NCBI GenBank assembly: GCA_031278635.1 | Contig: JAITKA010000139.1 | Span: 2,517-66,516 of the forward strand | Direction of reading: 5' to 3' | Source: Deltaproteobacteria bacterium | GTDB lineage: Bacteria > Desulfobacterota > Desulfarculia > Adiutricales > Adiutricaceae | Length of the DNA stretch: 64,000 nt | In this document: piece by piece, positions 2,048 through 48,093 of the stretch | How positions within the stretch are numbered: the first letter of the stretch is position 1 | How the letters are laid out: every line of letters begins with the position of its first letter | Program-made: the position numbers and the translations under genes | Notes under the pieces: model-generated | Database searches by the model: none | The model's input: the letters and a program-made list of their open reading frames with translations, nothing else | What the model was told of the DNA's origin: nothing

Positions 2048-3016
2048 TTAACCCTGGAACTGTTTTTCCCCGTCCTCGAGGAGGCCAAGGAGGTGGCCGT
2101 AGCCCTCGGCTTCCATGCGGGCCTTGGGGACGAAGCGCAGGGAGGCGCTGTTCACGCAATAGCGTAGGCCGCCGGCGGCGGGGGGGCCGTCGGGGAAGAC
2201 GTGGCCAAGGTGCGAGCCGCTTTCGCGACCCCGGATCTCGGTGCGTTGCCGGCCGTGGGAATTATCGGGCAACTTGGCGATGAGGGCGTCGTCTATGGGC
2301 TTGGAGAAGCTCGGCCAGCCGCAACCGGACTCAAACTTTTGGGTGGAGAGGAACAGGGGCTTGCCGTCGACGACGTCCACGTAGAGGCCAGGCTCAAAGG
2401 TGGCGAAATACTCGTTGGCGAAGGGCGGCTCGGTCGCCCCGCGCTGGGTCACCTCGTACTGCATGGGGGAGAGGCGCTTTTGGAGGTCGTTTTGGCCGGG
2501 GGCGGTTTTTTTGTGCCGGCGGGCGGCCTCGAAACTGGCCTCCGGGATATGGCAGTAGCCGCCGGGGTTTTTGTCGAGGTATTTTTGGTGGTAGGCCTCG
2601 GCGGAGTAGAAGTTCTTTAGCTTGCCGCCCTGGACGGCCAAGGGGCGGTCGAGGCTCTCGCCCAGGAGGACCAGGGAGCCATGGATGATGGGCCGGTCGG
2701 CGGGATCGAGGTAATAAACGCCGGTCCGGTACTGGGGCCCGGTGTCGTTCCCCTGTTTGTTGACCGAGGTCGGGTCTATGATTCGGTAGAATAAGTCCAG
2801 GAGCTCCGAGAGGCCCAGGACCGAGGCGTCGTAGGTCACCATGACGGCCTCGGCGAAGCCGGTGTCGCCCCCGCAAACGTCGTGGTAGGTGGGGTTTTCC
2901 GTGTTCCCGTTGGCGTAGCCGACCTCGGTTTCGATGACCCCGGGGATCAGGGAGAGATAGCGCTCGACCCCCCAAAAGCAGCCCCCGGCCAGGGCGATGG
3001 TTTTAGTTGTGGGCAC
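2048..3016 (-). CDS. msrAB: bifunctional peptide methionine sulfoxide reductase MsrA-MsrB fusion
   Basis: MsrA motif 'GGCFWGVE'; MsrB motifs 'CGWPSF' and 'RYCVNSASL'. GTG at 3016 has GGAGG 6 nt upstream (TTG at 3055 from the ORF track is the alternative start). Confidence 0.9.
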   Translation of the reverse strand: MPTTKTIALAGGCFWGVERYLSLIPGVIETEVGYANGNTENPTYHDVCGGDTGFAEAVMVTYDASVLGLSELLDLFYRIIDPTSVNKQGNDTGPQYRTGVYYLDPADRPIIHGSLVLLGESLDRPLAVQGGKLKNFYSAEAYHQKYLDKNPGGYCHIPEASFEAARRHKKTAPGQNDLQKRLSPMQYEVTQRGATEPPFANEYFATFEPGLYVDVVDGKPLFLSTQKFESGCGWPSFSKPIDDALIAKLPDNSHGRQRTEIRGRESGSHLGHVFPDGPPAAGGLRYCVNSASLRFVPKARMEAEGYGHLLGLLEDGEKQFQG

Positions 3017-3115
3017 GATGGACCTCCCCTCGCCCGGCAAGGCGAAAAAATTCAAAGCCGCCAGGATTAGGATACCATCTTCGCGGCCATAATCAACCGC
3101 GGGGGCGGGGGATTT

Positions 3116-4153
3116 TCAGTTTAAATCCGGGAGGGCCTGGGAAAAAACGCGCCCAAAAAAGGCCTTTTCGTCAAGGTTGGGAGCCAGGGCGCCCCTTTTG
3201 ATGCCCTCATGGATGTAATAACGGAGATGTTCCTTGGCGTGGCTCACCCCGGGCATCCACATGTACCGGGCGATTTCGGCCTCCAGGGGTTCCCTGGGGC
3301 CCCCCCAAAGGCCCGTGGCCAGATCGGCCGCCTTCGAGGGGTTTTCCCCGACCCGGCGGGCCCCCCGGATTAGGGCCCTGGTGATGGCCGCCGCGGACGC
3401 GGGGTCGCTCTCGGCGAGGGTGGCGGGCAAGACGACGAAGGACTCGAACAGGTGGTGGGCCGAGGTATGTTTGGCGTGGGGGTTCCCGCCATCGTCCGCC
3501 GGTGAGTGGGCGGGCAGGCTGGCCGAGGCGCCGAAAAGTACCGTGGGCTCGTCGGCCGGGGCATGCCCATGGTCGTGGCCATGGGCGGCCTCGTGGCGTT
3601 TAAACTCCCAGCGGGCCAGGGCCGAGGCCTCGGAGCTTTCGAGGGCGGCCAGGGGGTCGTCGGTTTCCAGCCAGCCGATGTCGGCGTCGGGATCGATGCC
3701 CTCGGAGCGGAAGTAACGGGCGGCGGCCACCGCCGGGCCCGAGGCGAGGTCTTGGACGGCCAGGATCGGTTTATGGCCGGGCCCCCAGGAGGGTCCGGCC
3801 AGGATTTCCACGAAGCCGCCGTAGAGGCCCGCCGTGAATATTAGGGGGGCCCCATGGGAGGCGAGTTTCAGGCCGAGGTGGTTGATTTCCCCGCCCTTTA
3901 TTTCACCGGAGGCGATTTTTTGGGAGATTTCGGGTGCCGTGAGCGAGAGGGGCTCGACCTCGAAGCCCTCGTCGGCGAAATAGCCCTCGGAGATGGCGGC
4001 CGAGATGATGGCGGCCCCGCCGGGGCTGGAGTAGGCGAGCTTGATTTTTTCCAGGGCCCATAGGGGCGAGGCCATGGCGAGGGCCATGGCGAGGGCCATG
4101 GCGGCGGCCAGGGGCAAAAAGGAGGCCCGGCGGGTGGGTGGATCGCGTTTCAT
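3116..4153 (-). CDS. ABC transporter substrate-binding protein, NMT1/SsuA-like (NitT/TauT family), with His-rich insert
   Basis: signal-like 'AAAMALAMALAMASPLWA' then 'KIKLAYSSPGG'; His-rich 'HEAAHGHDHGHA' and 'HAKHTSAHH'; 37 nt from the upstream permease gene. Confidence 0.7.
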   Translation of the reverse strand: MKRDPPTRRASFLPLAAAMALAMALAMASPLWALEKIKLAYSSPGGAAIISAAISEGYFADEGFEVEPLSLTAPEISQKIASGEIKGGEINHLGLKLASHGAPLIFTAGLYGGFVEILAGPSWGPGHKPILAVQDLASGPAVAAARYFRSEGIDPDADIGWLETDDPLAALESSEASALARWEFKRHEAAHGHDHGHAPADEPTVLFGASASLPAHSPADDGGNPHAKHTSAHHLFESFVVLPATLAESDPASAAAITRALIRGARRVGENPSKAADLATGLWGGPREPLEAEIARYMWMPGVSHAKEHLRYYIHEGIKRGALAPNLDEKAFFGRVFSQALPDLN

Positions 4154-4190: not shown

Positions 4191-5045
4191 TCAGTTCTCG
4201 GAGGCGTTGGGGAAACCTTCCAGGGAGAGGGTCAGGTAGCGGTGGCCCAGGGCCCGGATGAGGGCGTCCAGGATTAGGCCCAAAAAGGCTATGACCATGA
4301 CGGCGGCGTACATGCGGGTAAGCTGAAAGGTCTCCTGGCTGGAAAGGACCAGCCAGCCGAGGCCGCCGGAGGCCCCCATCATCTCGGCGGCCACCAGCAT
4401 GAACATGCTATAGCCGAGGCTCAGCCTGAGGCCGGAAAAGACGTGGGGCATGGTGGCCGGGATAACGATTTTTATGAGGAGCCCCAGGCGGTCAAGCCCG
4501 AAGGCCCGGCCGGCTTTGAGCAAAACGGGGTTGACCGTTGCGGCCCCGTGCGCGGAGGCGAAGGTTATCGGCCAGAGGCAGGCCCAGAAAATGATGGCGA
4601 TCTTGGGGCTCTCGCCTATGCCCATGAACAGGATCAGGATATGGAAGAGGAGGAAGGGGTTAATTTGGCTTAGGACTTCCAGGGGGATCTCAAGGCTCGT
4701 TTTAAGCCTGGGGAAGAAAGTCCCCAGGGCAAGGCCAAGGGGCACGCCGACCAGGGCGGCCAGGAAAAAGCCTGGGAGGGCCCTCATGAGGCTAAGGCGG
4801 ACGTGGGTCCCCATCACCCCGGTTTCAAAGAGACGCAAAATGGTATCCAAAACTAGGGTAAATGGAGGGAAGAATATGGGGTTTATTATTTTTAGCCTGC
4901 TTAAAATTTCCCATAATAACAAAAAGCCAATCACGCTGGCGTAGCGGCGCGCGAAAAGGCCCAGGGCCGCGAGGGTTTGGCGAAGGAGCCTTTCGGCTTT
5001 TTGGGGGCCGTGGGCGGCCAGCCTTATGACGGGCATAGTATCCAT
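4191..5045 (-). CDS. ABC transporter permease (SsuC/TauC-like), paralog 4 of 4
   Basis: ATG at 5045 ('MDTMPVIRL'). Permease core '...GRAFGLDRLGLLIKIVIPATMP...VAAEMMGASGGLGWLV'. The longer ORF-track start 5363 would overlap the upstream gene. Confidence 0.85.
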   Translation of the reverse strand: MDTMPVIRLAAHGPQKAERLLRQTLAALGLFARRYASVIGFLLLWEILSRLKIINPIFFPPFTLVLDTILRLFETGVMGTHVRLSLMRALPGFFLAALVGVPLGLALGTFFPRLKTSLEIPLEVLSQINPFLLFHILILFMGIGESPKIAIIFWACLWPITFASAHGAATVNPVLLKAGRAFGLDRLGLLIKIVIPATMPHVFSGLRLSLGYSMFMLVAAEMMGASGGLGWLVLSSQETFQLTRMYAAVMVIAFLGLILDALIRALGHRYLTLSLEGFPNASEN

Positions 5046-5098
5046 GGAAAACCTTGGCGGCTTGGGGGCCCGTGGGGTTTGATCGGGGCGGCGGCCCG

Positions 5099-6064
5099 TC
5101 ACCGGGACCAGACGCGGTACTCGGGGATGGCGGTGGGGTCGTTTAGCCGCACCTCGGCCAGGATTATCTCGTGGACGCCGACGGCCAGGACCAGCAGGAA
5201 GGCGGCCAGGGCGAGGGCGATTTTGAGGCTCGATATCCTCTTGCCGCCCTGGCTTGGCCGTTCGGCCCCCAGGAGGGGATCGACCGACTCCTTCCAGAAG
5301 AAAAGGCCGTTTTGGAGGAAGACCAGGAAGCGGTTGAGGCCCACCCCCAGGGCGACCACGCACAAACCGGCCCCGTATATCCGGGGTACCTGGTAGAGGG
5401 CCCCGGCGGAATGGATGATCCAGCCAAGGCCGGCCGTGGCCCCGGTCATCTCGGCGGCGATTAGGATGAAAAAGCTCATCCCCACCCCGATCCTAAGGCC
5501 GGAGAAGACCTGCGGGGCGGCGGCGGGGAGGACGATCCTCAAAAACGAGGTAAGCTTCCCGGCCCCCATGGAGCGCCCCGTGTCGAGCAAAACGGGATCG
5601 ACGTTCCTGACCCCGGTCAGGGTCGAGAAAAATATGGGCCACAGGGACACCCAGGCCAGGACGGCGATTTTCGGGGTCTCCCCGGAGCCGAAGAAGACCA
5701 CGAACAGCGGGAAAAGGCAGTAGGGGTTGATCAGGCCGAAGACCCTGAGAAGGGGCCCCAGGGCCTCGGCGGCGGCCGGGAAGGCCCGGCCCAGGGCGTA
5801 GCCGAAGGGGACGGCCACGGCCAGGGCCATGATTAGGCCGATCAGGACCCGGGTCAGCGAGACCATGACGTGGTTGAACAAAAAGGCCCTCTCCCAAAGT
5901 TCACGGGTGGCCGAGAGGGTCTGGGAAAGGCTGGGGACGAAGGCCGGGTCGGTTAGGCCCAGGGCGCCCGAGAGCTCCCAGGCGGCCAGGCCCAGGGCCA
6001 AAAGCCAGTATTTTTCCGCGAGACGCCGGGGGCGCCACCCGGCGGCCCGATCCAGCCTAGCCAT
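5099..6064 (-). CDS. ABC transporter permease (SsuC/TauC-like), paralog 3 of 4
   Basis: 'GRSMGAGKLTSFLRIVLPAAAP...IAAEMTGATAGLGWII'; multiple hydrophobic segments; ATG at 6064. Confidence 0.85.
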   Translation of the reverse strand: MARLDRAAGWRPRRLAEKYWLLALGLAAWELSGALGLTDPAFVPSLSQTLSATRELWERAFLFNHVMVSLTRVLIGLIMALAVAVPFGYALGRAFPAAAEALGPLLRVFGLINPYCLFPLFVVFFGSGETPKIAVLAWVSLWPIFFSTLTGVRNVDPVLLDTGRSMGAGKLTSFLRIVLPAAAPQVFSGLRIGVGMSFFILIAAEMTGATAGLGWIIHSAGALYQVPRIYGAGLCVVALGVGLNRFLVFLQNGLFFWKESVDPLLGAERPSQGGKRISSLKIALALAAFLLVLAVGVHEIILAEVRLNDPTAIPEYRVWSR

Positions 6065-6104
6065 GTCGCCCCCCGCTTTTGGGGACCTGGGAAGGGGCCC
6101 GGGC

Positions 6105-6884
6105 CTAAATGGCCTGGGCCTCTTTCCAGGTCACGGTGATTTTTTCCAGGTACCGAAAGAATTTGTCGATGAGGATGCCGAAAACCACGATGACCGCGGT
6201 CCCGGCGTAGAGCTTGGGGATCTGGTAATTGATCTGGGCGTTTATGATGAGCCAACCCAGCCCCCTTGAGGCCCCCATCATCTCGGCCGGGATGAGCATG
6301 AAAAAGGCCGTGCCCGCGGCCATCCTCAGGCCGTTGAAGAGGAAGGCGGCGGAGGACGGGATGACTATTTTGGCCAGAAGGCCTGGTTTCCCCATGCCCA
6401 TGGATCTGGCCAGTTTAATCAGGGAGGGATCGACGGATTTTACCCCCAGGGTGGCGTTCAGGAGGATCGGCCAGATGGAGACCCAGAAGATCATGGCCAC
6501 CTTCGAGAACTCGCCGATGCCGAAGAGGAGCAGGAAGACCGAAAATAGGGCGAAGGGGTTAAACTGGCCCAGGAAAACCAGAAGGGGGTTAAAAACCCGC
6601 TCGAAGTTCTTAAACCAGCCGCCCAGCATGAAGCCTAGGGGGATTGCGACCAGGGCGGCCAGGATGAAGCCGTAAAAGGCCCTGAGGAGCGAGACGCTGG
6701 CGTGCTTGTAAAGGGAGCCGTCGTTTAGGTATTGCCACAAGGTCTCGACTATGGTGACCGGGGAGGCCACGAAGGTTTTCGGCAGGATGCCGGCGAGGCA
6801 GCCCAGCTGCCAAAGCAAGACGAACAGGGCTATCGAGCCCACCTTGTAGAACAAATCCCAGAAGGTATCCGCTGTTATTTTCAT
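6105..6884 (-). CDS. ABC transporter permease (SsuC/TauC-like), paralog 2 of 4
   Basis: ATG at 6884 ('MKITADTFWDLF'), 37 nt after the upstream stop; 'ARSMGMGKPGLLAKIVIPSSAA...IPAEMMGASRGLGWLI'. Confidence 0.85.
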   Translation of the reverse strand: MKITADTFWDLFYKVGSIALFVLLWQLGCLAGILPKTFVASPVTIVETLWQYLNDGSLYKHASVSLLRAFYGFILAALVAIPLGFMLGGWFKNFERVFNPLLVFLGQFNPFALFSVFLLLFGIGEFSKVAMIFWVSIWPILLNATLGVKSVDPSLIKLARSMGMGKPGLLAKIVIPSSAAFLFNGLRMAAGTAFFMLIPAEMMGASRGLGWLIINAQINYQIPKLYAGTAVIVVFGILIDKFFRYLEKITVTWKEAQAI

Positions 6885-6921
6885 GGTTCCACCGTCCGGC
6901 CTAACCAATCCGTTGAATTCG

Positions 6922-7761
6922 TTAACCCAGCTTGACCTCTTCCTTAAAGTCAAGGAAATATGCCTCAAGCTTGTTCAAAAGAAGGATCATGAGCATGCCC
7001 AGGAGGGCGATCCCGACCACCCCGACGTAGATCCGGGGTATGTAATTGTTCATGGAGCTGTTGTGGATCAGCCAGCCCATGCCCGCGCTGGCCGAGAGCA
7101 TCTCGGCGGCGATGAGGAAAAGGAAGGCCGTGGTCGCCCCCATCCTGAGGCCCGTGAATATCGAGGGCAAGGCGGCCGGGAGGACGACCTTCCTGAAGAT
7201 TACGGCCTTTGAGGCCCCCATGGAGCGGGCGGCCTTGATCAATATGGGGTCGATATTCCGGACCCCGCTTATGGCCGTGTTCAGGATGGGAAATAGGCTC
7301 GACCAGAATATGATGGCGAACTTGGCCAGCTCCCCCACCCCGAACAAAAGTATGAACAGGGGGAAGAGGGCGAAGGGGTTGACGTTCCCCAGGAGCTGGA
7401 GGAGCGGGTTCAGGAATTTGGTCAGCCGAGGGAACCAGCCGGCCAGGACCATGGCCGAGGGGATGGCCACGGCTATGGCGGCGATGAGCCCCAGAAGGAC
7501 CCTCTGGGCGCTCGTGGCCGCGTGGATGAATATCTGGCCGCTCGCGACGAGCTTAAGGGCGTCGGTTACGACCTCCGAGAGCGGGGGGATGAATCGGCCG
7601 TCGGCCAGGCCCACGTAAGGCGCGATCTGCCAGAGGAGGAGGAAGGCGATGATGCCGTACCAGCCCATGACCCTATCATGGAAGCCCTTGTCCCCGGCGA
7701 CCGCCCTGGGAACCGGGCGGTTGGGGGCGAGGCCCTCCCCGGTAAGACGTAATTCCGTCAT
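6922..7761 (-). CDS. ABC transporter permease (SsuC/TauC-like), paralog 1 of 4
   Basis: 'ARSMGASKAVIFRKVVLPAALP...IAAEMLSASAGMGWLI'; ATG at 7761. Confidence 0.85.
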   Translation of the reverse strand: MTELRLTGEGLAPNRPVPRAVAGDKGFHDRVMGWYGIIAFLLLWQIAPYVGLADGRFIPPLSEVVTDALKLVASGQIFIHAATSAQRVLLGLIAAIAVAIPSAMVLAGWFPRLTKFLNPLLQLLGNVNPFALFPLFILLFGVGELAKFAIIFWSSLFPILNTAISGVRNIDPILIKAARSMGASKAVIFRKVVLPAALPSIFTGLRMGATTAFLFLIAAEMLSASAGMGWLIHNSSMNNYIPRIYVGVVGIALLGMLMILLLNKLEAYFLDFKEEVKLG

Positions 7762-7804: not shown

Positions 7805-8206
7805 TCACCTGGAGGCGAGCTTTTTTAGGGCGTCCGCCAGGGGGATATGGACGGCGAGGCCCAAAACGCCCCGTTCGGACAAGGCTTTCGTGGCCGCCGG
7901 CCCGATCCTACCGGCCAGGACCATGCCGCAATCGCCCAAAAGGTCCGCCGTTTTGGACAAAATGGCCAAATCGTGCGTTTTGTCCTGGCAGGGCCTCGGG
8001 GCGGGCCTGGTTTCCAGAAACTCGTAGCGGTAGCCTTGGTCCTCATTGACCAGACGGTATATGCGAAAGCTTTCCACCCGCCCGAAGCAGGCGTCCACGT
8101 TCTCGCCAGTCTCGCTGGCCACGGCCAGCCTCTCCGGCCTGTAGGGCCCCCGGGCGAGGCCGGCCGGCCTTGGCCGGGCCATTTGGCTTTGATCCGTTTT
8201 ACCCAT
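7805..8206 (-). CDS. NifX/NafY/NifB-C-terminal-like iron-molybdenum cluster-binding domain protein
   Basis: 'AVASETGENVDACFGRVESFRIY...LLGDCGMVLAGRIGPAATKALSERGV' fits the dinitrogenase FeMo-cofactor-binding domain pattern. ATG at 8206 is preceded by AAAGGGG. GTG at 8230 (GTGA overlap with the upstream stop) is also possible. Confidence 0.7.
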   Translation of the reverse strand: MGKTDQSQMARPRPAGLARGPYRPERLAVASETGENVDACFGRVESFRIYRLVNEDQGYRYEFLETRPAPRPCQDKTHDLAILSKTADLLGDCGMVLAGRIGPAATKALSERGVLGLAVHIPLADALKKLASR

Positions 8207-8226
8207 AACGTTGCCCCTTTGGCTTC

Positions 8227-9105
8227 TCACCCGTGGGAGAAGGTCTCCGCGGGCCCAAGTTCGCCGTAGATCTCCCGCGAGAAATCGGAGAGGCCCGGTA
8301 CGCCGCAGGCGTCGGCCCGGCAGCGGCGGCAGTTTCGCTTGACCGGGAGGTGTTTTTCGGCGGCCGCCATGGCCCGGGCCTTATCGGCCTCGCCGGGGGC
8401 GGGTAGGCCGGCCAGTTCGCCCGCCGGGATCAGGGATATGACGTTCAGGAGATCGGCCCCCCAGGACTTGACCGTTTTGGCCACCTCCCCGACGTGGCCA
8501 TCGTTTATGCCCGGCGCGAGGACGCAGTTCACCTTCACCACCATGCGGTTCCGGTGGGCCAGCCGGATGCCCTTTTCCTGGGCATCGATCAGGAGCCCGG
8601 CCCCTTCCAGGCCCCCCACGAAACGGGCCGGGGTGCCGCCCTTACCCATGAGGACTCCCCGGTTCAGCCTTTCCAGTATCCGTGGGTTCACGGCATTGAC
8701 CGTCACGGTTATGGTCTCGACCCCCGCCGCCATGACCCTTTCCATGTTTCGGCACAGGGCCAAGCCGTTGGTCGAAAGGCAGGTCATCAGTCCCGGGAAC
8801 CTTACCCTGACCATGGTCAGGGCGTCCAGGGCCTCCCCGGAGTCCAGGGGATCCCCTGGCCCGGCCACCCCTACGACCTTAAGCCCGGGGCAGAGCCGTA
8901 GGGCCGTCTCCACCACGCTCACGGCTTCCGCCGGGCTTATGGCCCGGGCCGCCTGCCCGGGGCGGTTTAGGCCCAGGCTCTCGCCCCTTGCGCAGAAACG
9001 GCAAAAGATGTTGCAGTCCTTGGCCACCGGTAGGTGGATCCTTCCGGTGGTTGGTTGGCACTGGGTCCCGAAGCAGGGATGCGATTTCAGTTTTTCGGTT
9101 TCCAT
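8227..9105 (-). CDS. NifB-like radical SAM protein (stand-alone radical SAM domain)
   Basis: 'HPCFG...GRIHLPVAKDCNIFCRFCARG' is a NifB-type N-terminal motif with the CxxxCxxC radical SAM triad; 292 aa, no fused NifX domain. Confidence 0.8.
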   Translation of the reverse strand: METEKLKSHPCFGTQCQPTTGRIHLPVAKDCNIFCRFCARGESLGLNRPGQAARAISPAEAVSVVETALRLCPGLKVVGVAGPGDPLDSGEALDALTMVRVRFPGLMTCLSTNGLALCRNMERVMAAGVETITVTVNAVNPRILERLNRGVLMGKGGTPARFVGGLEGAGLLIDAQEKGIRLAHRNRMVVKVNCVLAPGINDGHVGEVAKTVKSWGADLLNVISLIPAGELAGLPAPGEADKARAMAAAEKHLPVKRNCRRCRADACGVPGLSDFSREIYGELGPAETFSHG

Positions 9106-9160: not shown

Positions 9161-10516
9161 TCAGATTGGGCCGGCGAAGGCGTGGGACATGTCCTCGATC
9201 ATTCTCATGCCGCCCCGGTAGCCGACGTAGCTTCTCTCGATTATCATCCGGTCGTAGACCGGGTAGGAGACGCTCAGGTGGTGGGCCTCGTTCTCGGTCC
9301 CGGCTATGTATTTTTCGAGGGAACTCCCCAGGATGACCTGAAGGGGCTCCTCCCGGAGGGCCAGCCTGATGCGGTGGGAGTCGTAATCGAAGATGACCTT
9401 GGGGGCGAAGATGCCCTCGAGGTTCGTGGTCAGGAGCTTTTCTATGCCCTCGCGGTACTCCTCGGGGGGATCGTCGGTGACTATGGCCAGTTTCGGGTTC
9501 CAGCCCAGCTCGTTGGCCCCGAAGCGGATCAGGGTGGCCACGGTCAGGCTATCGCCGATCACGGCGAAGTATGAGTGGGGCATGGCCACCATGAATAGCT
9601 CGGCCATGTACTCGACGAAACGGTAAGCGGCCCTCTCCTCCCTGGCTATGACCTCCTCGACCCGTTTTTTGGGTATTTTGAGGAGCCTCCCCACGGTCCT
9701 TAGCAAGGCGGAGGTTTTCTTGGGGCCCACCGGGAGGAAATTAATCGCCTCGTAGGGGGTGCCGAAGCGATCCTCCAGCTTTTTGACCGTCCCGTGGGCC
9801 ACCCAGGGGCTGAAAACGAGGTTCAGGGAGGCGGCCGGGATGCGGCCTATGGCCCCGAGGCTATCGAAGTCGGTGAAGATTGGGTTGGCCTCGACCCCGA
9901 TCTTGGACAGGATATCCCGCAGGTAGATGAGATCGCCCTTCCAGAAGACGTTTTGGTTGGGAACCACCCCGAGGATGTTGACCAGCTTTTTCTCCACCGG
10001 CCTTTCGGTCAGGAGCGAATCGATGACCGCGTCGAGATAATGCTCGTAGCCTAGGAAGCCGTTCCCGACGAAGCCGGAGGTCTTGACGTGTATGACCTTG
10101 GCCTTGTCCTTGAACTCGGAGACGACGCTATCGACGTCGTCCCCGATCAGGGCCGGGACGCAGCCCGGGATGACCACGTAAAGGTCCCCTTTCATGACCG
10201 AAATCGTCGTCTCGATCAGGCGCCTTAGCTTATCCTCGCCGCCGAAGACGACGTGCTCCTCGATCAGGCTCGAGCAGGGGGTGACGGTGGTCCCGGAGGG
10301 GCCGCCGGAATTGAGCCCTGAGGCGTAGGTCATGCCGTGGGCGTTGGCCATGCCGCAACCGGAGCCGCTATGGAGGATGGGCACGGCCCCGTAGGTGGCC
10401 AGGGCCGCCGAGTAGGCCCCGCCCAGGGCGCAGGTGAAACGGGGGGATTCGGCCACCTCGGGATAGTCCCGGGCGGCCAGGGAACCCCCCTCCCCGGATA
10501 TAAGCGTCAGTCCCAT
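9161..10516 (-). CDS. nitrogenase-like component 1 beta (NifK/NifN-like) subunit
   Basis: Cys29/Cys54/Cys119 sit in 'FTCALGG', 'HSGSGCG' and 'IPGCVPALIGDD'. The first pair has the same 25-residue spacing as NifK P-cluster ligands. ATG at 10516 lies directly after the D-like stop (10519). Confidence 0.8.
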   Translation of the reverse strand: MGLTLISGEGGSLAARDYPEVAESPRFTCALGGAYSAALATYGAVPILHSGSGCGMANAHGMTYASGLNSGGPSGTTVTPCSSLIEEHVVFGGEDKLRRLIETTISVMKGDLYVVIPGCVPALIGDDVDSVVSEFKDKAKVIHVKTSGFVGNGFLGYEHYLDAVIDSLLTERPVEKKLVNILGVVPNQNVFWKGDLIYLRDILSKIGVEANPIFTDFDSLGAIGRIPAASLNLVFSPWVAHGTVKKLEDRFGTPYEAINFLPVGPKKTSALLRTVGRLLKIPKKRVEEVIAREERAAYRFVEYMAELFMVAMPHSYFAVIGDSLTVATLIRFGANELGWNPKLAIVTDDPPEEYREGIEKLLTTNLEGIFAPKVIFDYDSHRIRLALREEPLQVILGSSLEKYIAGTENEAHHLSVSYPVYDRMIIERSYVGYRGGMRMIEDMSHAFAGPI

Positions 10517-10518
10517 TT

Positions 10519-12033
10519 TTATCCGATGGCCTCCTTGCGGTGAAAGTAATGGGGATCGGGCTGCTCGTAAAACCATGGCCTGTAGGGATCCTCGGTCTTG
10601 GCCAGCATGGTGTTCTGGAAGGAGCGGTTATGGGTGGCCTGGAGGAGGAAATTCCCGCAGGCGACCGCCCCGGCGTAACCCGCCTGGGCGCTCCAGGTCC
10701 TGCCGTCGGCCCTTAGGGCGTGGATGCGGGTCATGCCCTTCTCGCGCTTGTAGGCGCTCCCCTGGAAGGGGCAAGAGAGGACCATGTCGGGATCGTGCTT
10801 GCGGGCCGTGTGGGCCACCTCGGCGGCCTGGAAGGTATTGACGACAATCTCGAAGTCGCCCACCCTTTTGATGAGGTTCTCGACGTCCTCCAGGAGGAGG
10901 TCGTCAAAATCCTGGCAGAGGGCCACCGGGGTGGTGACCCCGAGCTCATGGAAGAAGGGGGTTTGGGTGACCAGCCTGCCCTGCCCCAGGCTACCCATGA
11001 TCCGGTACTGCCCGCCGTTCTTTTTCTTGAGCTCGTCGAAACCGGCCCGGATCTTGTCCATCCGGGGCTCCCAGACCTTGCGCTCCTCCTTTATGACCCT
11101 CTCGGCCTCTTTCCCCTTCCCGGTCAGGGCCGCGACCTGCCTTAGCCACTCGTCGGTGTTGGCCATGCCTATCGGCGAGGGGTACAGGAAGTACGGCACG
11201 CCGAACTCCTGCTCGAGGCCCCTGGAGAGGTAGTCGGTGTAGGTCGGGCAGACCGGGGCGGTCAGGGCCGCCTCGGACATCTGCCTGAACTCCCCGACCG
11301 TGGCGAATTCCGGGATGAAGTTGGGCCGGAGGCCTATCTTGCCCAGGAGCCTCGTGATCTCCACCCGATCCTGCCAGGTGTAGCTCAGCATGGAGGCGAC
11401 GTTCACGAGATCGGCCTGCTTTTTCCGGGGTTTCCCGACCAGGTATTTCAGGATGCCGTGCCAGAAGGCGTCGTAACCGGTCTGGACGATCCTGGAGCGT
11501 ATGCCCTCGCAGTGGATGGGGACGATGGTGGCCCTGGTCCTGGGCTGCAGCTCGCTCACCACGCCCTCGATGTCCTCGCCGATGATGCCCGAGGCGCAGG
11601 AGGTCAGGATGAAAATGGCCTCCGGGGAATGGCGCCTCTCCGACTCCTCGATGGCGTAGCGGAGCTTGTCGGCGGCCCCGTAGATGACGTCCCGCTCGCC
11701 GATGTTGGTGGTGAGCCAGTGGAAATCGAAGTCCACGGCCCTGTTCAGGGAAGTCCACAGCCGCCTGAACACCTCCCGGTACAGGGCCGCCGGGGCGGCG
11801 CAGCCGACGGGCGAGTGGACGATCATGGCCGAGTCCCTGATGGTGGCCACCCGCACGGTCAGGTAGAAGTTAAGGAGGCAGCCGGCGTTCTGCTGGAAAT
11901 CGCGCTCGCAGTTCCGCAGTTGGCCGCTCCTGGCCCGCTCCACCAGCTCGGTGGCCTTGCCGTTAAACGCGTTGATGCCGTTGGCCCTCTGCTCCCTGGT
12001 GGGGCAGGTGGGGGCGTCGAGATTGATAGTCAT
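10519..12033 (-). CDS. nitrogenase-like component 1 alpha (NifD/NifE-like) subunit
   Basis: Motifs 'AGCLLN', 'HSPVGCAA', 'LTSCASGIIGEDIE', 'IVPIHCEGIR', 'VCPTYTDYLSR'; strong RBS AAGGAGG before the ATG at 12033. Confidence 0.8.
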   Translation of the reverse strand: MTINLDAPTCPTREQRANGINAFNGKATELVERARSGQLRNCERDFQQNAGCLLNFYLTVRVATIRDSAMIVHSPVGCAAPAALYREVFRRLWTSLNRAVDFDFHWLTTNIGERDVIYGAADKLRYAIEESERRHSPEAIFILTSCASGIIGEDIEGVVSELQPRTRATIVPIHCEGIRSRIVQTGYDAFWHGILKYLVGKPRKKQADLVNVASMLSYTWQDRVEITRLLGKIGLRPNFIPEFATVGEFRQMSEAALTAPVCPTYTDYLSRGLEQEFGVPYFLYPSPIGMANTDEWLRQVAALTGKGKEAERVIKEERKVWEPRMDKIRAGFDELKKKNGGQYRIMGSLGQGRLVTQTPFFHELGVTTPVALCQDFDDLLLEDVENLIKRVGDFEIVVNTFQAAEVAHTARKHDPDMVLSCPFQGSAYKREKGMTRIHALRADGRTWSAQAGYAGAVACGNFLLQATHNRSFQNTMLAKTEDPYRPWFYEQPDPHYFHRKEAIG

Positions 12034-12097: not shown

Positions 12098-13003
12098 TTA
12101 GATCTGGGCCCCGGCCGAGCGAACCTCGCCCCGCTCCACGGCCAATATCTGGTCTGACCATTTGCCGGCCCACTCCCTCAGCTCCCGGGGATCCAGGGGC
12201 TTTGGTGTGACGGAAACCTCGTGGGCCTCGACCCTCTTGGCCAACTCCCGGTAGACCTTGGCCTGATCGGAGGTCGGGTCGGCCTCGATTGTCGTCTTGC
12301 CGCTGAGCTCGCTCTGGGTGACCGTGATCGACCTGGGGACGTACTGGAGGACCTGGGTATTGGTCTGGGCCACGAAATCGTCCACTATGGCCTTCTGGTA
12401 ACCCCCCGAGACGCTGTTGGCGATCACCCCGCCCAAAAGGGCCCCGCCCGCGTTCGAGTACTTCTGGATGCCCTTAAACAGGTTGTTGGCCGCGTATATG
12501 GCCATGAAGTCGGAGGACGAGACCGTAAAGACGTGCTTGGCAATCCCCTCCCTGATGGGCACGGCGAAACCGCCGCAGACCACGTCTCCCAGGACGTCAT
12601 AGATGACGTAATCGAGCCCGAGCTCCTCGAAGACGTTCTGCTGCTTGAGGAGCTGGACCGCCGTGATGATGCCCCGCCCGGCGCAGCCCACCCCCGGGGA
12701 GGGCCCCCCGGACTCGACGCAGTAAATGCCGTTATAGCCCTCGAAAATGGCGTCCCTGGCCTCCACCCGCCCGTTTTCCCGTAACAGATCCAGGATGGTG
12801 GGGATGTAGGACCCGTCCCGCAGGGTGTTGGTGGAATCGGCCTTGGGGTCGCAACCGAATTGCATGACCCTGTAACCCATGTCGGCCAACGCCGCGCTCA
12901 AATTGGACGTCGTGGTGGACTTCCCGATCCCGCCCTTCCCGTAGATGGCGATCTGCTTAAGCTTGCGCTCTTTTTTCTTTTTAACCACTAATCTGGTCAC
13001 CAT
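12098..13003 (-). CDS. nitrogenase-like reductase (NifH/BchL family ATPase, NifH-type)
   Basis: P-loop '[10 protein letters not shown]', switch I 'CDPKADST', and both 4Fe-4S Cys ligands in 'GVGCAGRGI' and 'DVVCGGFA'; GGAGG RBS before the ATG at 13003. Confidence 0.92.
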
Positions 13004-13069: not shown

Positions 13070-14170
13070 TTACGATCCGGGCTTCCGCTCGGCAGCCTTG
13101 GCCTCGGCCGGGGCTTCCTCGAAGACGTGGCTGACGATGTCGGCCGATTTAATCTTGCCCCTGGGAAGGGCCCCCTGGAGCTCCAGGTCCTCTATCCATG
13201 GGTCGATCTCCTTTTCATTGACCCGCAAATCCTCGGCGTAGTAATGGTTGGCGCTCACCGGGACCCCTATGGCCTCCTGCGTCCAAAGCCTGGCCTCCTC
13301 GGGATTCCCGTTGATCCAGCGCTGGCCCTTCCCGATGGCCCTGATGAAAGCCCTCACGGTCTCCGGCCGTTCCTCGATGAACCTCGCGTTGAAGTAATAG
13401 AACGCCAGGCCCGCCGAGGCCCCATCGAGGTTGGCCTCCGAGGAGTCGCCGATCTTACGGTTCCCGGCATCCACCATGCCCTTGAAAAAGGGCGGATGGA
13501 CCCCGCCGACGTCCGTCAGCCCCTGGGTCAGGGCCTGTATCGACTGGACGTCCGGCATGGTCACCCACTCGATCTTGTCCCTGGGTATCCCGTACCGGTC
13601 GAAAATCCTGTAGGCCAGGAAATCCGAGCACTGGGTGGTCGAGATTATCGAGAACTTAAGCGTACCCTCGATATCCTTCAGATCGGCGAAACTCTTGACA
13701 TTGGGGTACTTCTTAGGGTTAACGAACCACCACATGTGCCTAAAACTTTCGTCCACCTCCGGCCCCGGCTCCACCCCCTCCCTGGCCACGCCCTTGAAAT
13801 TGGCCCCGCCGTGCATGGCCACGGCCAAAACGTTGGGATGGGCCGCGGCCACGTCGTTGTCGCCCTTGATTATCGAGGGCACCTGCTGGGGCGGCTGCAG
13901 CTCCCCGGTAAAGACCAGCCTGATGCCCTCCTCCCGGAAATAGCCCAGCTTGTCGGTCACAAGCCAGGGAGCCAGCGAGCAATCCCGCCTGGTCCAGGTC
14001 CGTACCTCCTGGAGGGCCAAATCTTCCACCGCCTCCGCCGCCTGGCCCTCGAAACTCGCCGAGGGCGCCGCCTCCCTGGTCCGCCCCTGGTAGGCCCCAA
14101 CGCCTATCAGCCCAATGACGGCCACGGCCGCGACTATGATTATGACCAAGTTCTTCTTTTTGATACCCAT
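13070..14170 (-). CDS. ABC transporter substrate-binding protein, NMT1/SsuA-like (NitT/TauT family)
   Basis: ATG at 14170 gives the signal/anchor 'MGIKKKNLVIIIVAAVAVIGLIGVGA'. The 112 codons upstream in the ORF track are Gly/Arg-rich GC artefact. Confidence 0.75.
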   Translation of the reverse strand: MGIKKKNLVIIIVAAVAVIGLIGVGAYQGRTREAAPSASFEGQAAEAVEDLALQEVRTWTRRDCSLAPWLVTDKLGYFREEGIRLVFTGELQPPQQVPSIIKGDNDVAAAHPNVLAVAMHGGANFKGVAREGVEPGPEVDESFRHMWWFVNPKKYPNVKSFADLKDIEGTLKFSIISTTQCSDFLAYRIFDRYGIPRDKIEWVTMPDVQSIQALTQGLTDVGGVHPPFFKGMVDAGNRKIGDSSEANLDGASAGLAFYYFNARFIEERPETVRAFIRAIGKGQRWINGNPEEARLWTQEAIGVPVSANHYYAEDLRVNEKEIDPWIEDLELQGALPRGKIKSADIVSHVFEEAPAEAKAAERKPGS

Positions 14171-14214: not shown

Positions 14215-15144
14215 CTAGGCCTCCCGGGCCAACGGCCCGCCCTTGGCCCCACCGACCCTCAGCCCCAACCTCGGGCCCCCCTCCCCGGGCGCCCCCTGGA
14301 GGCTCTCCCAAACCCTTTGCCGAATCTCCCCGTAGGCCGGGCTCAGGCGTATCTCCTGGTTGGTCCTGGGCCGCCCCAGCCCTATGTCGATGACGGCCCG
14401 TATCCTCCCGGGGTTGGCGCCCATGACCACCACCCTGTCGGCCAAAATGACCGCCTCGTCGATGCCGTGGGTCACGAACAGGATGGTCTTGCCCGTTTTC
14501 TCCCATATCCGCATGAGCTCGTCCTGCAGCATCTCCCTCGTCTGGGCATCGACCGCCGCGAAGGGCTCGTCCATCAACAGCACCTCCGGGTCATAGGCCA
14601 GGGCCCTGGCTATGGCCACCCGCTGCTTCATGCCCCCCGACAACTCATACGGGTAGCGGTCCTCGAAGCCCTCAAGGTTGACCAGCTCGATGAACCTCTG
14701 GCTGACCTCTTTCCTCTCCCTCGCGGCCAGCCCCTTCATCTCCAGCCCGAACTCCACGTTTTTCCGCACCGTCCGCCAGGGAAAGAGCGCGTAGCCCTGC
14801 ATGACTATGCCCCTGTCCAAGGCCGGCCCCGTCACCGCCTTGCCGTCGATGAATATCTGGCCACCGTCGGCCCTGGCCAAACCGGCGACTATGTTCAGCA
14901 GGGTCGATTTGCCGCAGCCGCTGGGCCCGACGATGGAGACGAACTCCCCCGCCGCCACGTTTAGGCTGAAGCTCTCCAGGGCCAGGAAATCCCCCGGCCC
15001 CTCGCCATCGACCCCCCTGATCCTGTAGACCTGCCGCAGGTCCCTCAAAACGATCTTGTAGCCGTCCCCTCCCGCATCGGCCCCCGGCCTATCCGATTCC
15101 CCAACATCTCCCCGGGCCGCGGCCCCGCTAAATGAAAAGCCCAT
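14215..15144 (-). CDS. ABC transporter ATP-binding protein (SsuB/TauB-like, NitT/TauT family)
   Basis: Walker A 'GPSGCGKSTLL', signature 'LSGGMKQRVAIARAL', Walker B 'LLMDEPF'; first gene of the operon. Confidence 0.9.
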   Translation of the reverse strand: MGFSFSGAAARGDVGESDRPGADAGGDGYKIVLRDLRQVYRIRGVDGEGPGDFLALESFSLNVAAGEFVSIVGPSGCGKSTLLNIVAGLARADGGQIFIDGKAVTGPALDRGIVMQGYALFPWRTVRKNVEFGLEMKGLAARERKEVSQRFIELVNLEGFEDRYPYELSGGMKQRVAIARALAYDPEVLLMDEPFAAVDAQTREMLQDELMRIWEKTGKTILFVTHGIDEAVILADRVVVMGANPGRIRAVIDIGLGRPRTNQEIRLSPAYGEIRQRVWESLQGAPGEGGPRLGLRVGGAKGGPLAREA

Positions 15145-16269: not shown

Positions 16270-16572
16270 CTATGCCCCCTTCCGGCGCTTACCTTTTTTG
16301 CCTGAGCATTTCATGGCCGTGAGCGGGCAGACCTTCGAGCAGCCCGTGCAGTAGCGACCCTCGAGCCCCGGGCTAAAGAAATTATCTTCCTCGCGGCTGG
16401 CCTCGTTTTTTGGGGCCACGTTTAGCCCGTCCTCGCCCCCCGGGGCCTCATCGGGCCCCTGGGGCCGTGCCCAGGGCGCCCGCCGGCCGCCTGGGGGGCG
16501 ACCGTGGTGGTGGCCATGGTGGCGGTGGCGCAGGGAGTCGAATAACGTCCCGAAAAAGTGATTAAATCCCAT
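16270..16572 (-). CDS. small His- and Cys-rich protein (possible metal-binding or anti-sigma partner)
   Basis: AAGGAG RBS before the ATG at 16572; N-terminal 'RHRHHGHHHG', C-terminal 'CTGCSKVCPLTAMKC'; directly downstream of the ECF sigma gene; no family recognised. Confidence 0.55.
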   Translation of the reverse strand: MGFNHFFGTLFDSLRHRHHGHHHGRPPGGRRAPWARPQGPDEAPGGEDGLNVAPKNEASREEDNFFSPGLEGRYCTGCSKVCPLTAMKCSGKKGKRRKGA

Positions 16573-16596
16573 TTGATCTCCTTATGTTGGATGTCG

Positions 16597-17166
16597 TCAT
16601 CGATAAACGATGGATTCGTAAAGCTCCAGGAGCTTTCGCCTAAGGGCCAAAACGGCCTTATGCTTTCTTGACAATAACGTGTTGACGGGCACCCCCGTCT
16701 GGGCCGAGATTTCCTTGAACGATTGGCCCATGAACTCCGTTTTGATGAATATCTCGCTTTGATCCGGCGGCAGGCCGGCCAAGGCCCGTTCGACTTCCTC
16801 CCAAAATAATTGCTTTAGGTAGGCCTCCTCCGAGGTCTCCGGCTGCCTGAAAAGGAGCGTCGAGATCTCCATGATCTCCGCGCTGGGCTCGGAATCCTCC
16901 CCGTCCACGGATAGCGTCTCCTTCTTTTTCCGGTAGCGATCGATTATCTCGTTTTTGGCCGCCTTGTAGAGCCAGGCCGCCGCCATATCGATGGGACCGC
17001 TCAGGCTGTCGGCCTTGATTAAATTACAGACGATTTCCTGGAAGACGTCGTCCACGTCCGAAAGGGGGACTTTTTTGGCGATAAAAGCCTTTACTTTGGC
17101 CTGGCAAGACTTGATGGCCTCCAGAAGTTTGTTGCCATTATCAGCGCTGACCATTTGGGTTATCAT
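16597..17166 (-). CDS. ECF-type RNA polymerase sigma-70 factor
   Basis: Region 2 'DDVFQEIVCNLIK...AAWLYKAAKNEIIDRYRKKK' and region 4 HTH 'QSFKEISAQTGVPVNTLLSRKHKAVLALRRKL'; ATGA overlap with the upstream gene. Confidence 0.85.
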   Translation of the reverse strand: MITQMVSADNGNKLLEAIKSCQAKVKAFIAKKVPLSDVDDVFQEIVCNLIKADSLSGPIDMAAAWLYKAAKNEIIDRYRKKKETLSVDGEDSEPSAEIMEISTLLFRQPETSEEAYLKQLFWEEVERALAGLPPDQSEIFIKTEFMGQSFKEISAQTGVPVNTLLSRKHKAVLALRRKLLELYESIVYR

Positions 17167-17732
17167 TTTTCTGGACCGGATATATCGCCGGGTTTATCAC
17201 CCCCCTCTCGCTCGCGAGGGCGGTCATGGCCACTTCCATGCTCCCGGTCGTGCGTTGGCCCATTTTCATGCTCCCGGTCGTGCGTTGGCCCATTTTCATG
17301 GTCATGGTGGCGCGTTGACCCATTTTCATGGTCATGGTGGTGACCCTCACCCCCGCTCTCACCTTCGTCCCCAGGCCCGTGACGCCCTCTCCCCCAGCCG
17401 CAGGGCCCCTTTGACCCCGGCCCTCGCCCGGCATTCTCCTCGCCGGCCTTTTTGAGCCACCAGGGGACGGACCGGCCATACAGGAGGCTGGCCCGCTCAT
17501 CGGGCGTAAGCTTGAACCAAGCTTTTTGGAGCTTGTAGTTGACGCTTCTCTCGTAGTACTGGCCGAACAAAATCCTGCACATAAGCAAAAAGCCCAGGGC
17601 CTGGAGGTAGCTCATGCTCTTCAGCCCGGTAACGCTCGGAATGACCGCGTTCCACAAAAGCATGATAATGAGCCCTCCCAAGGCCACTGACAGGGCTACT
17701 TTCAATATGAATAGATGGTGGTGATGTTTCAT
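17163..17732 (-). CDS. membrane protein with His-rich repetitive C-terminal tail
   Basis: 'MKHHHH' then two hydrophobic segments. Tail 'HHHDHENGSTRHHDHENGPTHDREHENGPTHDREHGSGHD'. An 'LTPDE' motif is reminiscent of LTxxQ (CpxP/ZraP/CnrX-like) sensors. Confidence 0.6.
   Translation of the reverse strand: MKHHHHLFILKVALSVALGGLIIMLLWNAVIPSVTGLKSMSYLQALGFLLMCRILFGQYYERSVNYKLQKAWFKLTPDERASLLYGRSVPWWLKKAGEENAGRGPGSKGPCGWGRGRHGPGDEGESGGEGHHHDHENGSTRHHDHENGPTHDREHENGPTHDREHGSGHDRPREREGGDKPGDISGPEK
17237..17345 (-). repeat. 30-bp in-frame tandem repeat (~3.6 copies) encoding the His-rich tail
   Basis: 'catgctcccggtcgtgcgttggcccatttt' at 17237 and 17267; diverged copies at 17297 and 17327. Confidence 0.85.
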
Positions 17733-39458: not shown

Positions 39459-39534
39459 GGGCGGTTAACTCAGCGGCTAGAGTGCTGGCTTTACACGCCA
39501 GGAGTCAGAGGTTCGAATCCTCTACCGCCTACCA
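39459..39534 (+). tRNA. tRNA-Val (anticodon TAC), CCA encoded
   Basis: Acceptor GGGCGGT/ACCGCCT, D-arm 'AGCGGCTAGAG', anticodon stem CTGGC/GCCAG with loop TT-TAC-AC, T-arm 'GGTTCGAATCC', discriminator A plus CCA; 76 nt. Confidence 0.93.
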
Positions 39535-45185: not shown

Positions 45186-45938
45186 CTAGATATACCCGGC
45201 GTAGAGGCTTAGGATCCAGTTAAGGACCTCGGACTCGAGCTTGGCGAAGTCCATGTCCCGCTGCCTGGGCCTGGGCAGGCTGATTTTCAAATCCTGTGAG
45301 ATACGGCCGTTCTCCAGGAGAATGACCCTGTCGGCCAGCGTGATGGCCTCGGCCACGTCATGGGTCACCAAAAGGGCCGTAAAGCCACGGCTGGCCCACA
45401 CCCTTTCCACCAGGGCCTGCATCCCTATCCTGGTCAGGGCGTCCAGGGCGCCCATGGGCTCGTCCAGCAGCAACAGTTTGGGGGAGTGGGCCAGGGCCCT
45501 GGCCAGGGCCACCCTTTGCCTCTGGCCGCCCGAGAGCGTCCTGGGCCAGTCGCCCTGCCGGAGCCCCAGACCCACGTCCCCCAAGGCTGTCATGGCCACC
45601 CGTCGCCAGTCCCCGGCGAGGCCCAGGCCGACGTTTTCCAAAACGGTTTTCCAGGGCAGTAGCCTGTCCTCCTGGAACATGATCCTGGTGTCCGGGTTCA
45701 GATCCGACCGGGGCTCCCCGTCGACCGAAACGCTCCCCTCGTCCGGGGCCTCAAGGCACCCCAGAAGCCTCAGCAGGGTCGTCTTGCCGCAGCCGCTGCG
45801 GCCGACCACCGCCGTGAACTCCCCCGCCTTAAGCTCGAAGCTGAGCCCGTTCAGGACGGAGGTCTGGCCGTAGGCCTTGGACAGCCCCTCGGTCCTTACC
45901 CCCGCTCCCCCGCCAGGGCCTTTAATGTCATATTCCAT
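45186..45938 (-). CDS. ssuB: aliphatic sulfonate ABC transporter ATP-binding protein
   Basis: Walker A 'GRSGCGKTTLL', signature 'LSGGQRQRVALARAL', 'LLLLDEPMGALDALTR'; in an operon with ssuA/ssuC-like genes. Confidence 0.8.
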   Translation of the reverse strand: MEYDIKGPGGGAGVRTEGLSKAYGQTSVLNGLSFELKAGEFTAVVGRSGCGKTTLLRLLGCLEAPDEGSVSVDGEPRSDLNPDTRIMFQEDRLLPWKTVLENVGLGLAGDWRRVAMTALGDVGLGLRQGDWPRTLSGGQRQRVALARALAHSPKLLLLDEPMGALDALTRIGMQALVERVWASRGFTALLVTHDVAEAITLADRVILLENGRISQDLKISLPRPRQRDMDFAKLESEVLNWILSLYAGYI

Positions 45939-46115
45939 GCTTTGCCCTTTCGCGGCTCCCGCCGGGGGCCAGCCCCGGCGCCCGCCGGGGCCTGGGCCTA
46001 AAATTACGGGTCATTCTGGGTTAGCGAAATTTCCCGGGGAAATGCGCGGTTAGGCGGCCAGCCCGCCCGGATAAATGGGTTCGGGCGATTAGAAACGATA
46101 AGCCGTAAGCTTCCG

Positions 46116-46937: not shown

Positions 46938-46948
46938 GGCCAGGGTTC

Positions 46949-47914: not shown

Positions 47915-48093
47915 GTCCTCCGAAAAAGTGATAAAAAAATTATCCATAATATACAAATCGTAAATTATCTTATATAAGCAGACAAAAACACTTTTCACCT
48001 GCCAATATATGCTATCTTACGACATGCCTAACCCTGGACCCAGGCCCCCGCCCTCCCGGCCGGGGGCCCTTTCGCCCCCAAGCCCACTGGCAA

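Follow-up and report, generated by a model that had tools for sequence, protein, structure and literature searches.

A nitrogenase-like D/K protein pair from a Deltaproteobacteria bacterium, distinct from methylthio-alkane reductase and probably involved in organosulfur assimilation

A stretch of 64,000 nucleotides from a Deltaproteobacteria bacterium (assembly GCA_031278635.1, contig JAITKA010000139.1, positions 2,517 to 66,516 of the forward strand), called here the window, carries on its minus strand an operon that encodes two proteins related to the D and K subunits of nitrogenase (nflD and nflK). The D/K pair is probably a Group IV nitrogenase-like (NFL) two-component reductase of a clade distinct from methylthio-alkane reductase (MAR), which would hold a P-cluster and an L-type cluster and would cleave a C-S bond of an imported organosulfur compound for sulfur assimilation. 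Its proposed architecture is based on homology with a solved structure and on the invariance of the ligands. The analysis shows homology, conserved ligands, the content of the operon and a conserved gene neighbourhood; from these we infer which clusters are held, how electrons travel, what binds the distal Fe and which class of substrate is used. A sulfur role is the most likely one, judging from the gene neighbourhood and from the functions of MAR and of the isethionate system IsrHDK (ISR). An earlier note on this DNA had proposed an alpha2-beta2 enzyme with a P-cluster, a complex cofactor site and a chemistry different from that of nitrogenase. This is the best-supported reading, with MAR as the closest solved structure, NifH-, NifB- and NifX-like proteins encoded in the same operon, and nitrogenase Gln191 and His195 absent.

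Results and discussion

Cluster ligands and active-site residues of the D and K subunits

The features of both genes are the following, with positions numbered in the window.

10519..12033, minus strand: nflD, D (alpha-like) subunit, 504 amino acids (translation, homology)
9161..10516, minus strand: nflK, K (beta-like) subunit, 451 amino acids (ATG at 10516, homology)
11878-11880, minus strand: D Cys52, predicted P-cluster ligand (alignment)
11800-11802, minus strand: D Cys78, predicted P-cluster ligand (alignment)
11596-11598, minus strand: D Cys146, predicted P-cluster ligand (alignment)
11248-11250, minus strand: D Cys262, predicted proximal cofactor ligand (alignment)
10771-10773, minus strand: D Cys421, candidate distal ligand (MAR ligand loop)
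10720-10722, minus strand: D His438, candidate distal ligand (near the NifD His442 loop)
11485-11487 and 11473-11475, minus strand: D Val183 and Tyr187, replacing NifD Gln191 and His195 (alignment)
10430-10432, minus strand: K Cys29, predicted P-cluster ligand (alignment)
10355-10357, minus strand: K Cys54, predicted P-cluster ligand (alignment)
10160-10162, minus strand: K Cys119, predicted P-cluster ligand (alignment)

The Azotobacter vinelandii NifD and NifK sequences used as references were full length and 100% identical to the PDB chains. Rhodospirillum rubrum MarD and MarK were rebuilt from HMMER alignments to 9fmg/9d9u, and the published ligand numbers landed on the expected residues. 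The equivalences of D residues were taken from a MAFFT alignment of 109 sequences, and invariance was counted in 120 D homologues (at least 62% identity) and 44 K homologues.

Translation of 10519-12033 places Cys52, Cys78, Cys146 (LTSCASGIIGED), Cys262 (VCPTYTDYLSR), His438 (TRIHALRADG) and HCEGIRSRIVQTGYD in the D protein, and all the D and K residues listed in the earlier note were found at the positions given there when K is numbered from the ATG at 10516. Cys52, Cys78, Cys146 and Cys262 of D correspond to NifD C62, C88, C154 and C275 and to MarD C66, C91, C158 and C270, and Cys29, Cys54 and Cys119 of K correspond to NifK C70, C95 and C153 and to MarK C32, C56 and C121. The assignment of the first three D cysteines and the three K cysteines as P-cluster ligands, and of Cys262 as the cofactor cysteine, is thus borne out by the alignment, and the equivalent MAR residues are the observed ligands of the P-cluster and of the [Fe8S9C] cluster (PMC12552129). 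All seven cysteines are invariant (120/120 D and 44/44 K homologues). At the level of sequence comparison these matches are not due to chance, since D and K match the MAR chains at E = 1e-70 and 9e-73 and the seven cysteines are invariant. K Gly148 takes the place of NifK Ser188. A fourth K cysteine, Cys81 (10274-10276), is kept in 43 of the 44 clade homologues and is a serine in MarK and NifK; the extra Cys52 of MarK is Ser50 in the window K.

Gln191 and His195 of NifD are replaced by Val183 and Tyr187, as the earlier note had read by eye, so that N2 would not be the substrate. The active-site stretch described in that note as different from nitrogenase is indeed so, and it is not MAR-like either (IVQTGYD in D, HWSTGFD in helix 9 of MarD). 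Other residues of the nitrogenase pocket are retained: Val60, Arg86 and Arg353 of D are equivalent to NifD Val70, Arg96 and Arg359, with Val in 98 and Arg in 119 of the 120 homologues at the first two positions, and Arg353 invariant in a 70-sequence alignment. Arg436, His438 and Arg441 are also invariant in the 120 homologues.

Relation to MAR, nitrogenase and other NFL systems

The top PDB matches of both proteins by HMMER were the chains of R. rubrum MAR (9FMG, 9D9U), with the E values given above for MarD and MarK, and nitrogenase alpha and beta chains followed at about 1e-20. Identity by BLASTP was 32% between D and MarD and 33% between K and MarK, compared with 26% between D and NifD and 22% between K and NifK. 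An AlphaFold2 model of D (predicted local distance difference test, pLDDT, 85.5; predicted template modelling score, pTM, 0.89) superposed on 9fmg_A with template modelling (TM) scores of 0.83/0.89, and on nitrogenase or NifE chains with about 0.65-0.8 (nitrogenase alpha chains about 0.7). In a profile-profile comparison D matched the Mar-clade alignment with 100% probability (E 4e-100). The NCBIfam scores of D were below the cut-offs for the nitrogenase alpha chain (N2-ase-Ialpha, 132 against 486 bits) and for nifD (120 against 654), and K also scored far under every nitrogenase equivalog cut-off.

Like R. rubrum MarHDK and MarB (Group IV-C NFL), the window system is a two-component one of the NifH/D/K type that has a NifB homologue of its own. 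The six cysteines of the P-cluster and the one at the proximal end of the cofactor (Cys262 in D, Cys270 in MarD) match, and both systems are associated with sulfur metabolism. In both, Gly is found instead of NifK Ser188 and K lacks the long N-terminal extension of NifK (K Cys29 being NifK Cys70). MAR is also the best fold match, with a loop of the same length between two domain-III strands. Experiments on R. rubrum MAR have shown that its homologous cysteines carry an [Fe8S9C] cluster in addition to a P-cluster (PMC12552129). The residues around the cofactor site are, however, different. The Arg428-His429 pair of MarD is Cys421-Pro422 in D; MarD His194, Trp195 and Phe199 are Ile182, Val183 and Tyr187, Trp195 being required for MAR activity; Cys73 and Gln74 are Val60 and Arg61; and Asn99 and Tyr353 are Arg86 and Arg353, which form the nitrogenase Arg96/Arg359 pair absent from MAR. 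The invariant Arg436, His438 and Arg441 have no MAR counterpart, and D falls in a separate clade.

With A. vinelandii NifDK the window proteins share the three-domain fold, the six P-cluster cysteines, Cys275, the equivalents of Val70, Arg96 and Arg359, and, as a candidate counterpart of His442, a conserved histidine at the end of the strand on which NifD has that residue. They differ from NifDK in the absence of Gln191 and His195, in an identity of 21-26%, in Cys421 at the place of NifD Gly424, in the position of His438 two alignment columns off His442, and in the lack of the NifK N-terminal extension, and nifEN and nifV were not found among the window open reading frames (ORFs) scanned.

IsrHDK of Rhodobacter capsulatus (Group IV-F NFL) is likewise a nitrogenase-like reductase encoded beside transport genes, and serves sulfur assimilation from an imported sulfonate (isethionate) under anoxia. 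Of the NifD ligand cysteines, IsrD has a counterpart of Cys88 alone, with other residues in place of Cys62 and Cys154 and no Cys275 equivalent, whereas the window D has all four, and IsrB is not NifB-like, unlike the NifB-type partner in the window operon. NfaHDK of Endomicrobium proavitum (Group IV-A NFL) resembles the window system in its P-cluster and proximal cofactor cysteines, with similar numbers (NfaD Cys53/78/146, PMC13474568), and in its NifB partner. By its published description NfaD has the MAR-type loop histidine and a link to N2 fixation, while the window D has a cysteine at that place and a sulfur-related context.

Retention of the P-cluster and cofactor cysteines together with loss of Gln191 and His195 was already known in Group IV NFL proteins (PMC13474568). 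We have not found described in the literature the combination seen here, in which the Arg-His hallmark of MAR is missing, a near-invariant loop cysteine and an invariant histidine on a nitrogenase-type loop are present, and the Arg96, Arg359 and Val70 equivalents are kept.

Candidates for the distal cofactor ligand

His438 had been put forward in the earlier note as a possible equivalent of the cofactor histidine. It is invariant in the clade, but in the MAFFT alignment it stands at the column of NifD Glu440, two columns before His442, and there is a second candidate beside it. The AlphaFold model puts His438 two residues past a beta-strand (434-436); its sequence context, H-[AS]-[LF], recalls H-S-W of nitrogenase. 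HMMER local alignments to nitrogenase alpha chains stop near residue 420-424, and the equivalence of His438 and His442 is therefore without statistical support. A comparison with nitrogenase and MAR had been proposed as a check in the note; by sequence alignment the seven cysteines fall on cluster ligands and Gln191/His195 have no equivalents, and His438 is a candidate for the cofactor histidine.

The second candidate, Cys421, was missed in that note. It is present in 119 of the 120 D homologues at the MAR ligand loop, in the sequence S-C421-P-F-Q-G. His429, the residue that binds the distal Fe of MAR, is located on the MarD-specific Loop I beside Arg428, and this pair has been proposed as the hallmark of MAR (PMC12552129). 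The loop between the two flanking domain-III strands has 13 residues in both the window D and MarD, so that an ungapped comparison, in agreement with MAFFT, equates Cys421 with Arg428 and Pro422 with His429. Opposite MarD His429, Phe423 was placed by HMMER, Pro422 by MAFFT and Glu431 by HHalign, the first and the last being shifted by one and nine residues, and none of the three methods set a histidine of the query there. Neighbouring clades carry A-H-P-G, T-H-P-G or A-H-G-G at the Cys421 spot, which makes an exchange of His for Cys at the ligand loop plausible. Both Cys421 and His438 are, by these alignments, credible candidates for the distal ligand.

One arrangement can be put forward tentatively, although we consider it less likely than not to be correct in all its parts: the L-type cluster would be mounted unlike in nitrogenase and MAR, by a Cys421 thiolate at the loop of the MAR histidine (all-cysteine ligation), with His438, Arg436, Arg441 and the Arg96, Arg359 and Val70 equivalents lining a pocket suited to an imported organosulfur substrate that would be new and is probably anionic. 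If so, L-type clusters would have a third mode of mounting, and the clade would carry out a new NFL reaction that is common among methanogens and further anaerobes. MarD Cys270, Arg428 and His429 have been stated to be conserved in 'nearly all' Group IV systems (PMC13474568); the window clade is a clear exception, with a MAR-like fold, nitrogenase-like pocket arginines and another distal-ligand arrangement.

Clade, distribution and gene neighbourhood

In an exhaustive search of 50%-identity representatives, D was included in a single 50%-identity cluster (P0121, 64%), the nearest other clusters being at 46% and 43%. Besides P0121, the CPF and H-x-[LF]-R-x-D motifs are common only to these two clusters, and Mar-like 'RH' and Isr-like 'DCPN' proteins form groups separate from the cluster of the window D. 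The identical database protein is annotated as 'nitrogenase'. A stretch encoding a relative was found in at least 148 species-representative genomes. The closest are further metagenome-assembled genomes of Deltaproteobacteria, followed by Geobacteraceae, Sporomusa, Desulfosporosinus, Myxococcales and many methanogens; Methanothrix, Methanosarcina, Methanospirillum, Methanoregula, Methanoculleus, Methanobacterium, Methanocella and Methanoperedenaceae are among the carriers. Several carriers are cultured strains, among them Sporomusa silvacetica DSM 10669, Geotalea toluenoxydans, Methanospirillum lacunae Ki8-1 and members of Methanosarcina and Methanoculleus.

Neighbouring genes were counted in 46 related loci of at least 15 kb. 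K lies beside D in all of them, and genes for a NifH-like protein (34/46), an ABC ATPase (32/46), a permease (29/46), an SsuA-like binding protein (25/46), NifX (16/46) and NifB (12/46) were found near D. Sulfur enzymes and methyltransferases were counted by unbiased clustering of all ORFs in 79 loci, with homocysteine synthase/O-acetylhomoserine sulfhydrylase near D in 20, cysteine synthase A in 15 and a MtaA/CmuA-family methyltransferase in 11. Examples of the last, of the corrinoid type, are in loci L003/L021 (15840-16928) and L027. In a 2023 preprint, MarHDK-like genes were described near such methyltransferase clusters (type I 'mlp'), and methionine salvage or sulfur valorisation from methyl-sulfide compounds was suggested (PMC10418091).

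Two to five D/K pairs are present in many loci, and D genes with the 'CPF' loop and with the Mar-like 'RH' loop occur together in eight of them (L001, L024, L030, L032, L036, L053, L072 and L081). Such D/K arrays suggest enzyme families with different substrates. A fused MsrA-MsrB methionine sulfoxide reductase (2048-3055, minus strand) is encoded directly 3' of the window operon. It was considered as a functional partner and rejected, as MsrAB was near D in none of the 46 related loci and the adjacency is probably incidental.

Proposed reaction and alternative explanations

In the reaction proposed, an organosulfur substrate would be imported by the co-encoded SsuABC/TauABC-like transporter. 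The NifH-like dimer would couple ATP hydrolysis to the transfer of electrons out of its [4Fe-4S] cluster. A P-type [Fe8S7] cluster at the D/K interface, held by Cys52/78/146 of D and Cys29/54/119 of K, would receive them and pass them on to an L-type [Fe8S9C] cluster buried within D. The L-type cluster would be made by the NifB-like enzyme of the operon, delivered by the NifX-like protein, and anchored at one end by Cys262 and at the other by Cys421 or His438. Reductive C-S cleavage would then yield sulfide or a thiol for the synthesis of cysteine and methionine (CysK, MetY). Of the relatives that have been characterised, MAR and ISR each assimilate sulfur by breaking a C-S bond (PMC12552129, PMC11423573, PMC13474568). 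The clade may thus represent an overlooked anaerobic route of organosulfur assimilation, methanogens included, and uncharacterised clades were named as the main open problem in a 2026 review of the field (PMC13474568).

Several observations weigh against this interpretation. The three aligners disagree across residues 421-433, which leaves two distal-ligand candidates, and the AlphaFold model is low at 421-430 (pLDDT about 51). The linkage with transporter and sulfur genes is frequent but not universal (roughly 25-70% of loci), and NifB is within the fetched flanks of just 12 of the 46 loci; the other genomes may carry it at a more distant place. Both binding proteins of the operon are without a PDB relative by sequence, and their SsuA/NMT1 family scores are weak and point to no particular substrate.

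The alternative that survives best, though still unlikely, is that the ABC transporter takes up a substrate other than a sulfur compound, which the system reduces, or that the system serves the maturation of a cofactor or tetrapyrrole, as NifEN, CfbCD and DPOR do. The NMT1/SsuA family also takes nitrate, hydroxymethylpyrimidine (HMP), phosphonates and similar ligands, and the MtaA/CmuA-family methyltransferases near the clade would also fit. Against it, the six P-cluster cysteines and the cysteine of the buried cofactor are kept; some of these are missing from CfbD, DPOR and IsrD, which also have no cofactor site of this kind (PMC13474568). The NifB and NifX dedicated to the system speak for a carbide cluster with a catalytic function, and the enriched neighbours form cysteine and methionine.

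It is also quite improbable that the pair is a divergent MarDK orthologue (Group IV-C), reducing dimethyl sulfide (DMS), ethyl methyl sulfide (EMS) and methylthioethanol to methanethiol and hydrocarbons. In sequence as well as in fold MAR is the best PDB match, both operons include B, H, D and K genes, and the O-acetylhomoserine sulfhydrylase found near the clade is a consumer of methanethiol. The 32% identity of D with MarD, however, contrasts with about 52-65% among three Rhodopseudomonas palustris Mar/Nfl paralogues, all of which have His429 (bioRxiv 10.64898/2026.08.20.746119). The hallmark pair is replaced in D, as is Trp195, whose substitution inactivates MAR, and D is separated from the 'RH'-loop proteins both in its 50%-identity cluster and in a neighbour-joining clade. 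The adjoining of 'CPF'-type and 'RH'-type D genes in eight loci argues for different jobs. By its sequence, then, the window protein is not a MAR orthologue.

A working alternative nitrogenase like Nfa, fixing N2 on a homocitrate-free iron-only cofactor, is very hard to credit: in its favour would be a histidine close to the His442 loop and the retained counterparts of Val70, Arg96 and Arg359, and Group IV-A Nfa has been proposed to fix N2 (PMC13474568), but Gln191 and His195, needed for N2 reduction, are Val and Tyr, NCBIfam scores are far under the nitrogenase cut-offs, nifEN, nifV and PII-type genes were not found among the window ORFs scanned, and the partner genes that are conserved encode transporters of the sulfonate type and enzymes of sulfur assimilation rather than nitrogen functions.

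Operon organization and other features of the window

From its first gene, the minus-strand operon encodes an ABC ATPase, an SsuA/NMT1-like binding protein, nflH, nflD, nflK, NifB-like and NifX-like proteins, four SsuC/TauC-like permeases and a second binding protein. The features other than nflD and nflK are the following.

15997-15969 and 15706-15678, minus strand: two sigma-70-like promoter matches (11/12 and 10/12; consensus match only), in an AT-rich region 5' of the operon
14215..15144, minus strand: ABC transporter ATPase of the nitrate/sulfonate/taurine type, first gene of the operon (family scan)
13070..14170, minus strand: NMT1/SsuA-family substrate-binding protein (family scans; the listed ORF extends to 14506)
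12098..13003, minus strand: nflH, NifH-like ATP-dependent reductase, 301 amino acids (TIGR01287, 401 bits)
8227..9105, minus strand: nflB, NifB-like radical-SAM protein, 292 amino acids (TIGR01290, E 4.9e-58, below cut-off)
7805..8230, minus strand: NifX/NafY-like cofactor-carrier domain protein (PF02579)
4191..7761, minus strand: four tandem SsuC/TauC-type ABC permease genes (family scans)
3116..4153, minus strand: second substrate-binding protein, weakly NMT1-like, 3' of the permeases (family scan)

The nflH product shows the P-loop GKGGIGKS, the switch I motif DPKAD and the [4Fe-4S] cysteines in GVGCAG (Cys107) and VVCGGF (Cys143). In nflB the NifB motifs HPCF, CNIFCRFC (CX3CX2C), GPGD, TNG and CRRCRADA are present, and there is no fused NifX domain. 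The permease ORFs as listed are 6922-7761, 6105-6968, 5099-6064 and 4191-5363; the true starts of the second and the fourth are likely at 6884 and 5045. The start of the first binding protein is likely the Met at 14170, ahead of a membrane anchor. The second binding protein was found in three of the 46 related loci. For K, a longer ORF with its first ATG at 10576 was rejected; the ATG at 10516 is the better start because it comes immediately after the stop codon of D, with an AAGGAGG 14 nucleotides 5' of it.

The promoter matches are followed by a leader of about 530 nucleotides, which ends in a GC-rich hairpin and T-run (15202-15178) just 5' of the first gene; from its sequence this could be an attenuator or an unrelated terminator. 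The leader gave no Rfam match at the gathering threshold or at a permissive E-value, and its conservation in related loci was not found by blastn. Among the window ORFs scanned against Pfam and NCBIfam, no nifEN-, nifV-, PII-type or second D/K-type match was obtained.

A second NMT1/SsuA-type ABC transporter (ATPase, permease and binding protein) is encoded at 45186-47998 on the minus strand, about 30 kb from the operon. An ECF-type sigma factor gene (16597-17166, within 16270-17732, minus strand) is flanked by two small putative ORFs with histidine-rich stretches (HRHHGHHHG and repeated HDHENG/HDREHENG), and together they may form a metal-responsive module. Along the window, blocks with a G+C content of about 60-69% alternate with patches in which it is 45-51% (1-2, 18-20, 38-42, 54-56 and 60-64 kb), and a tRNA gene (39459-39531) is located within one of the low-GC patches.

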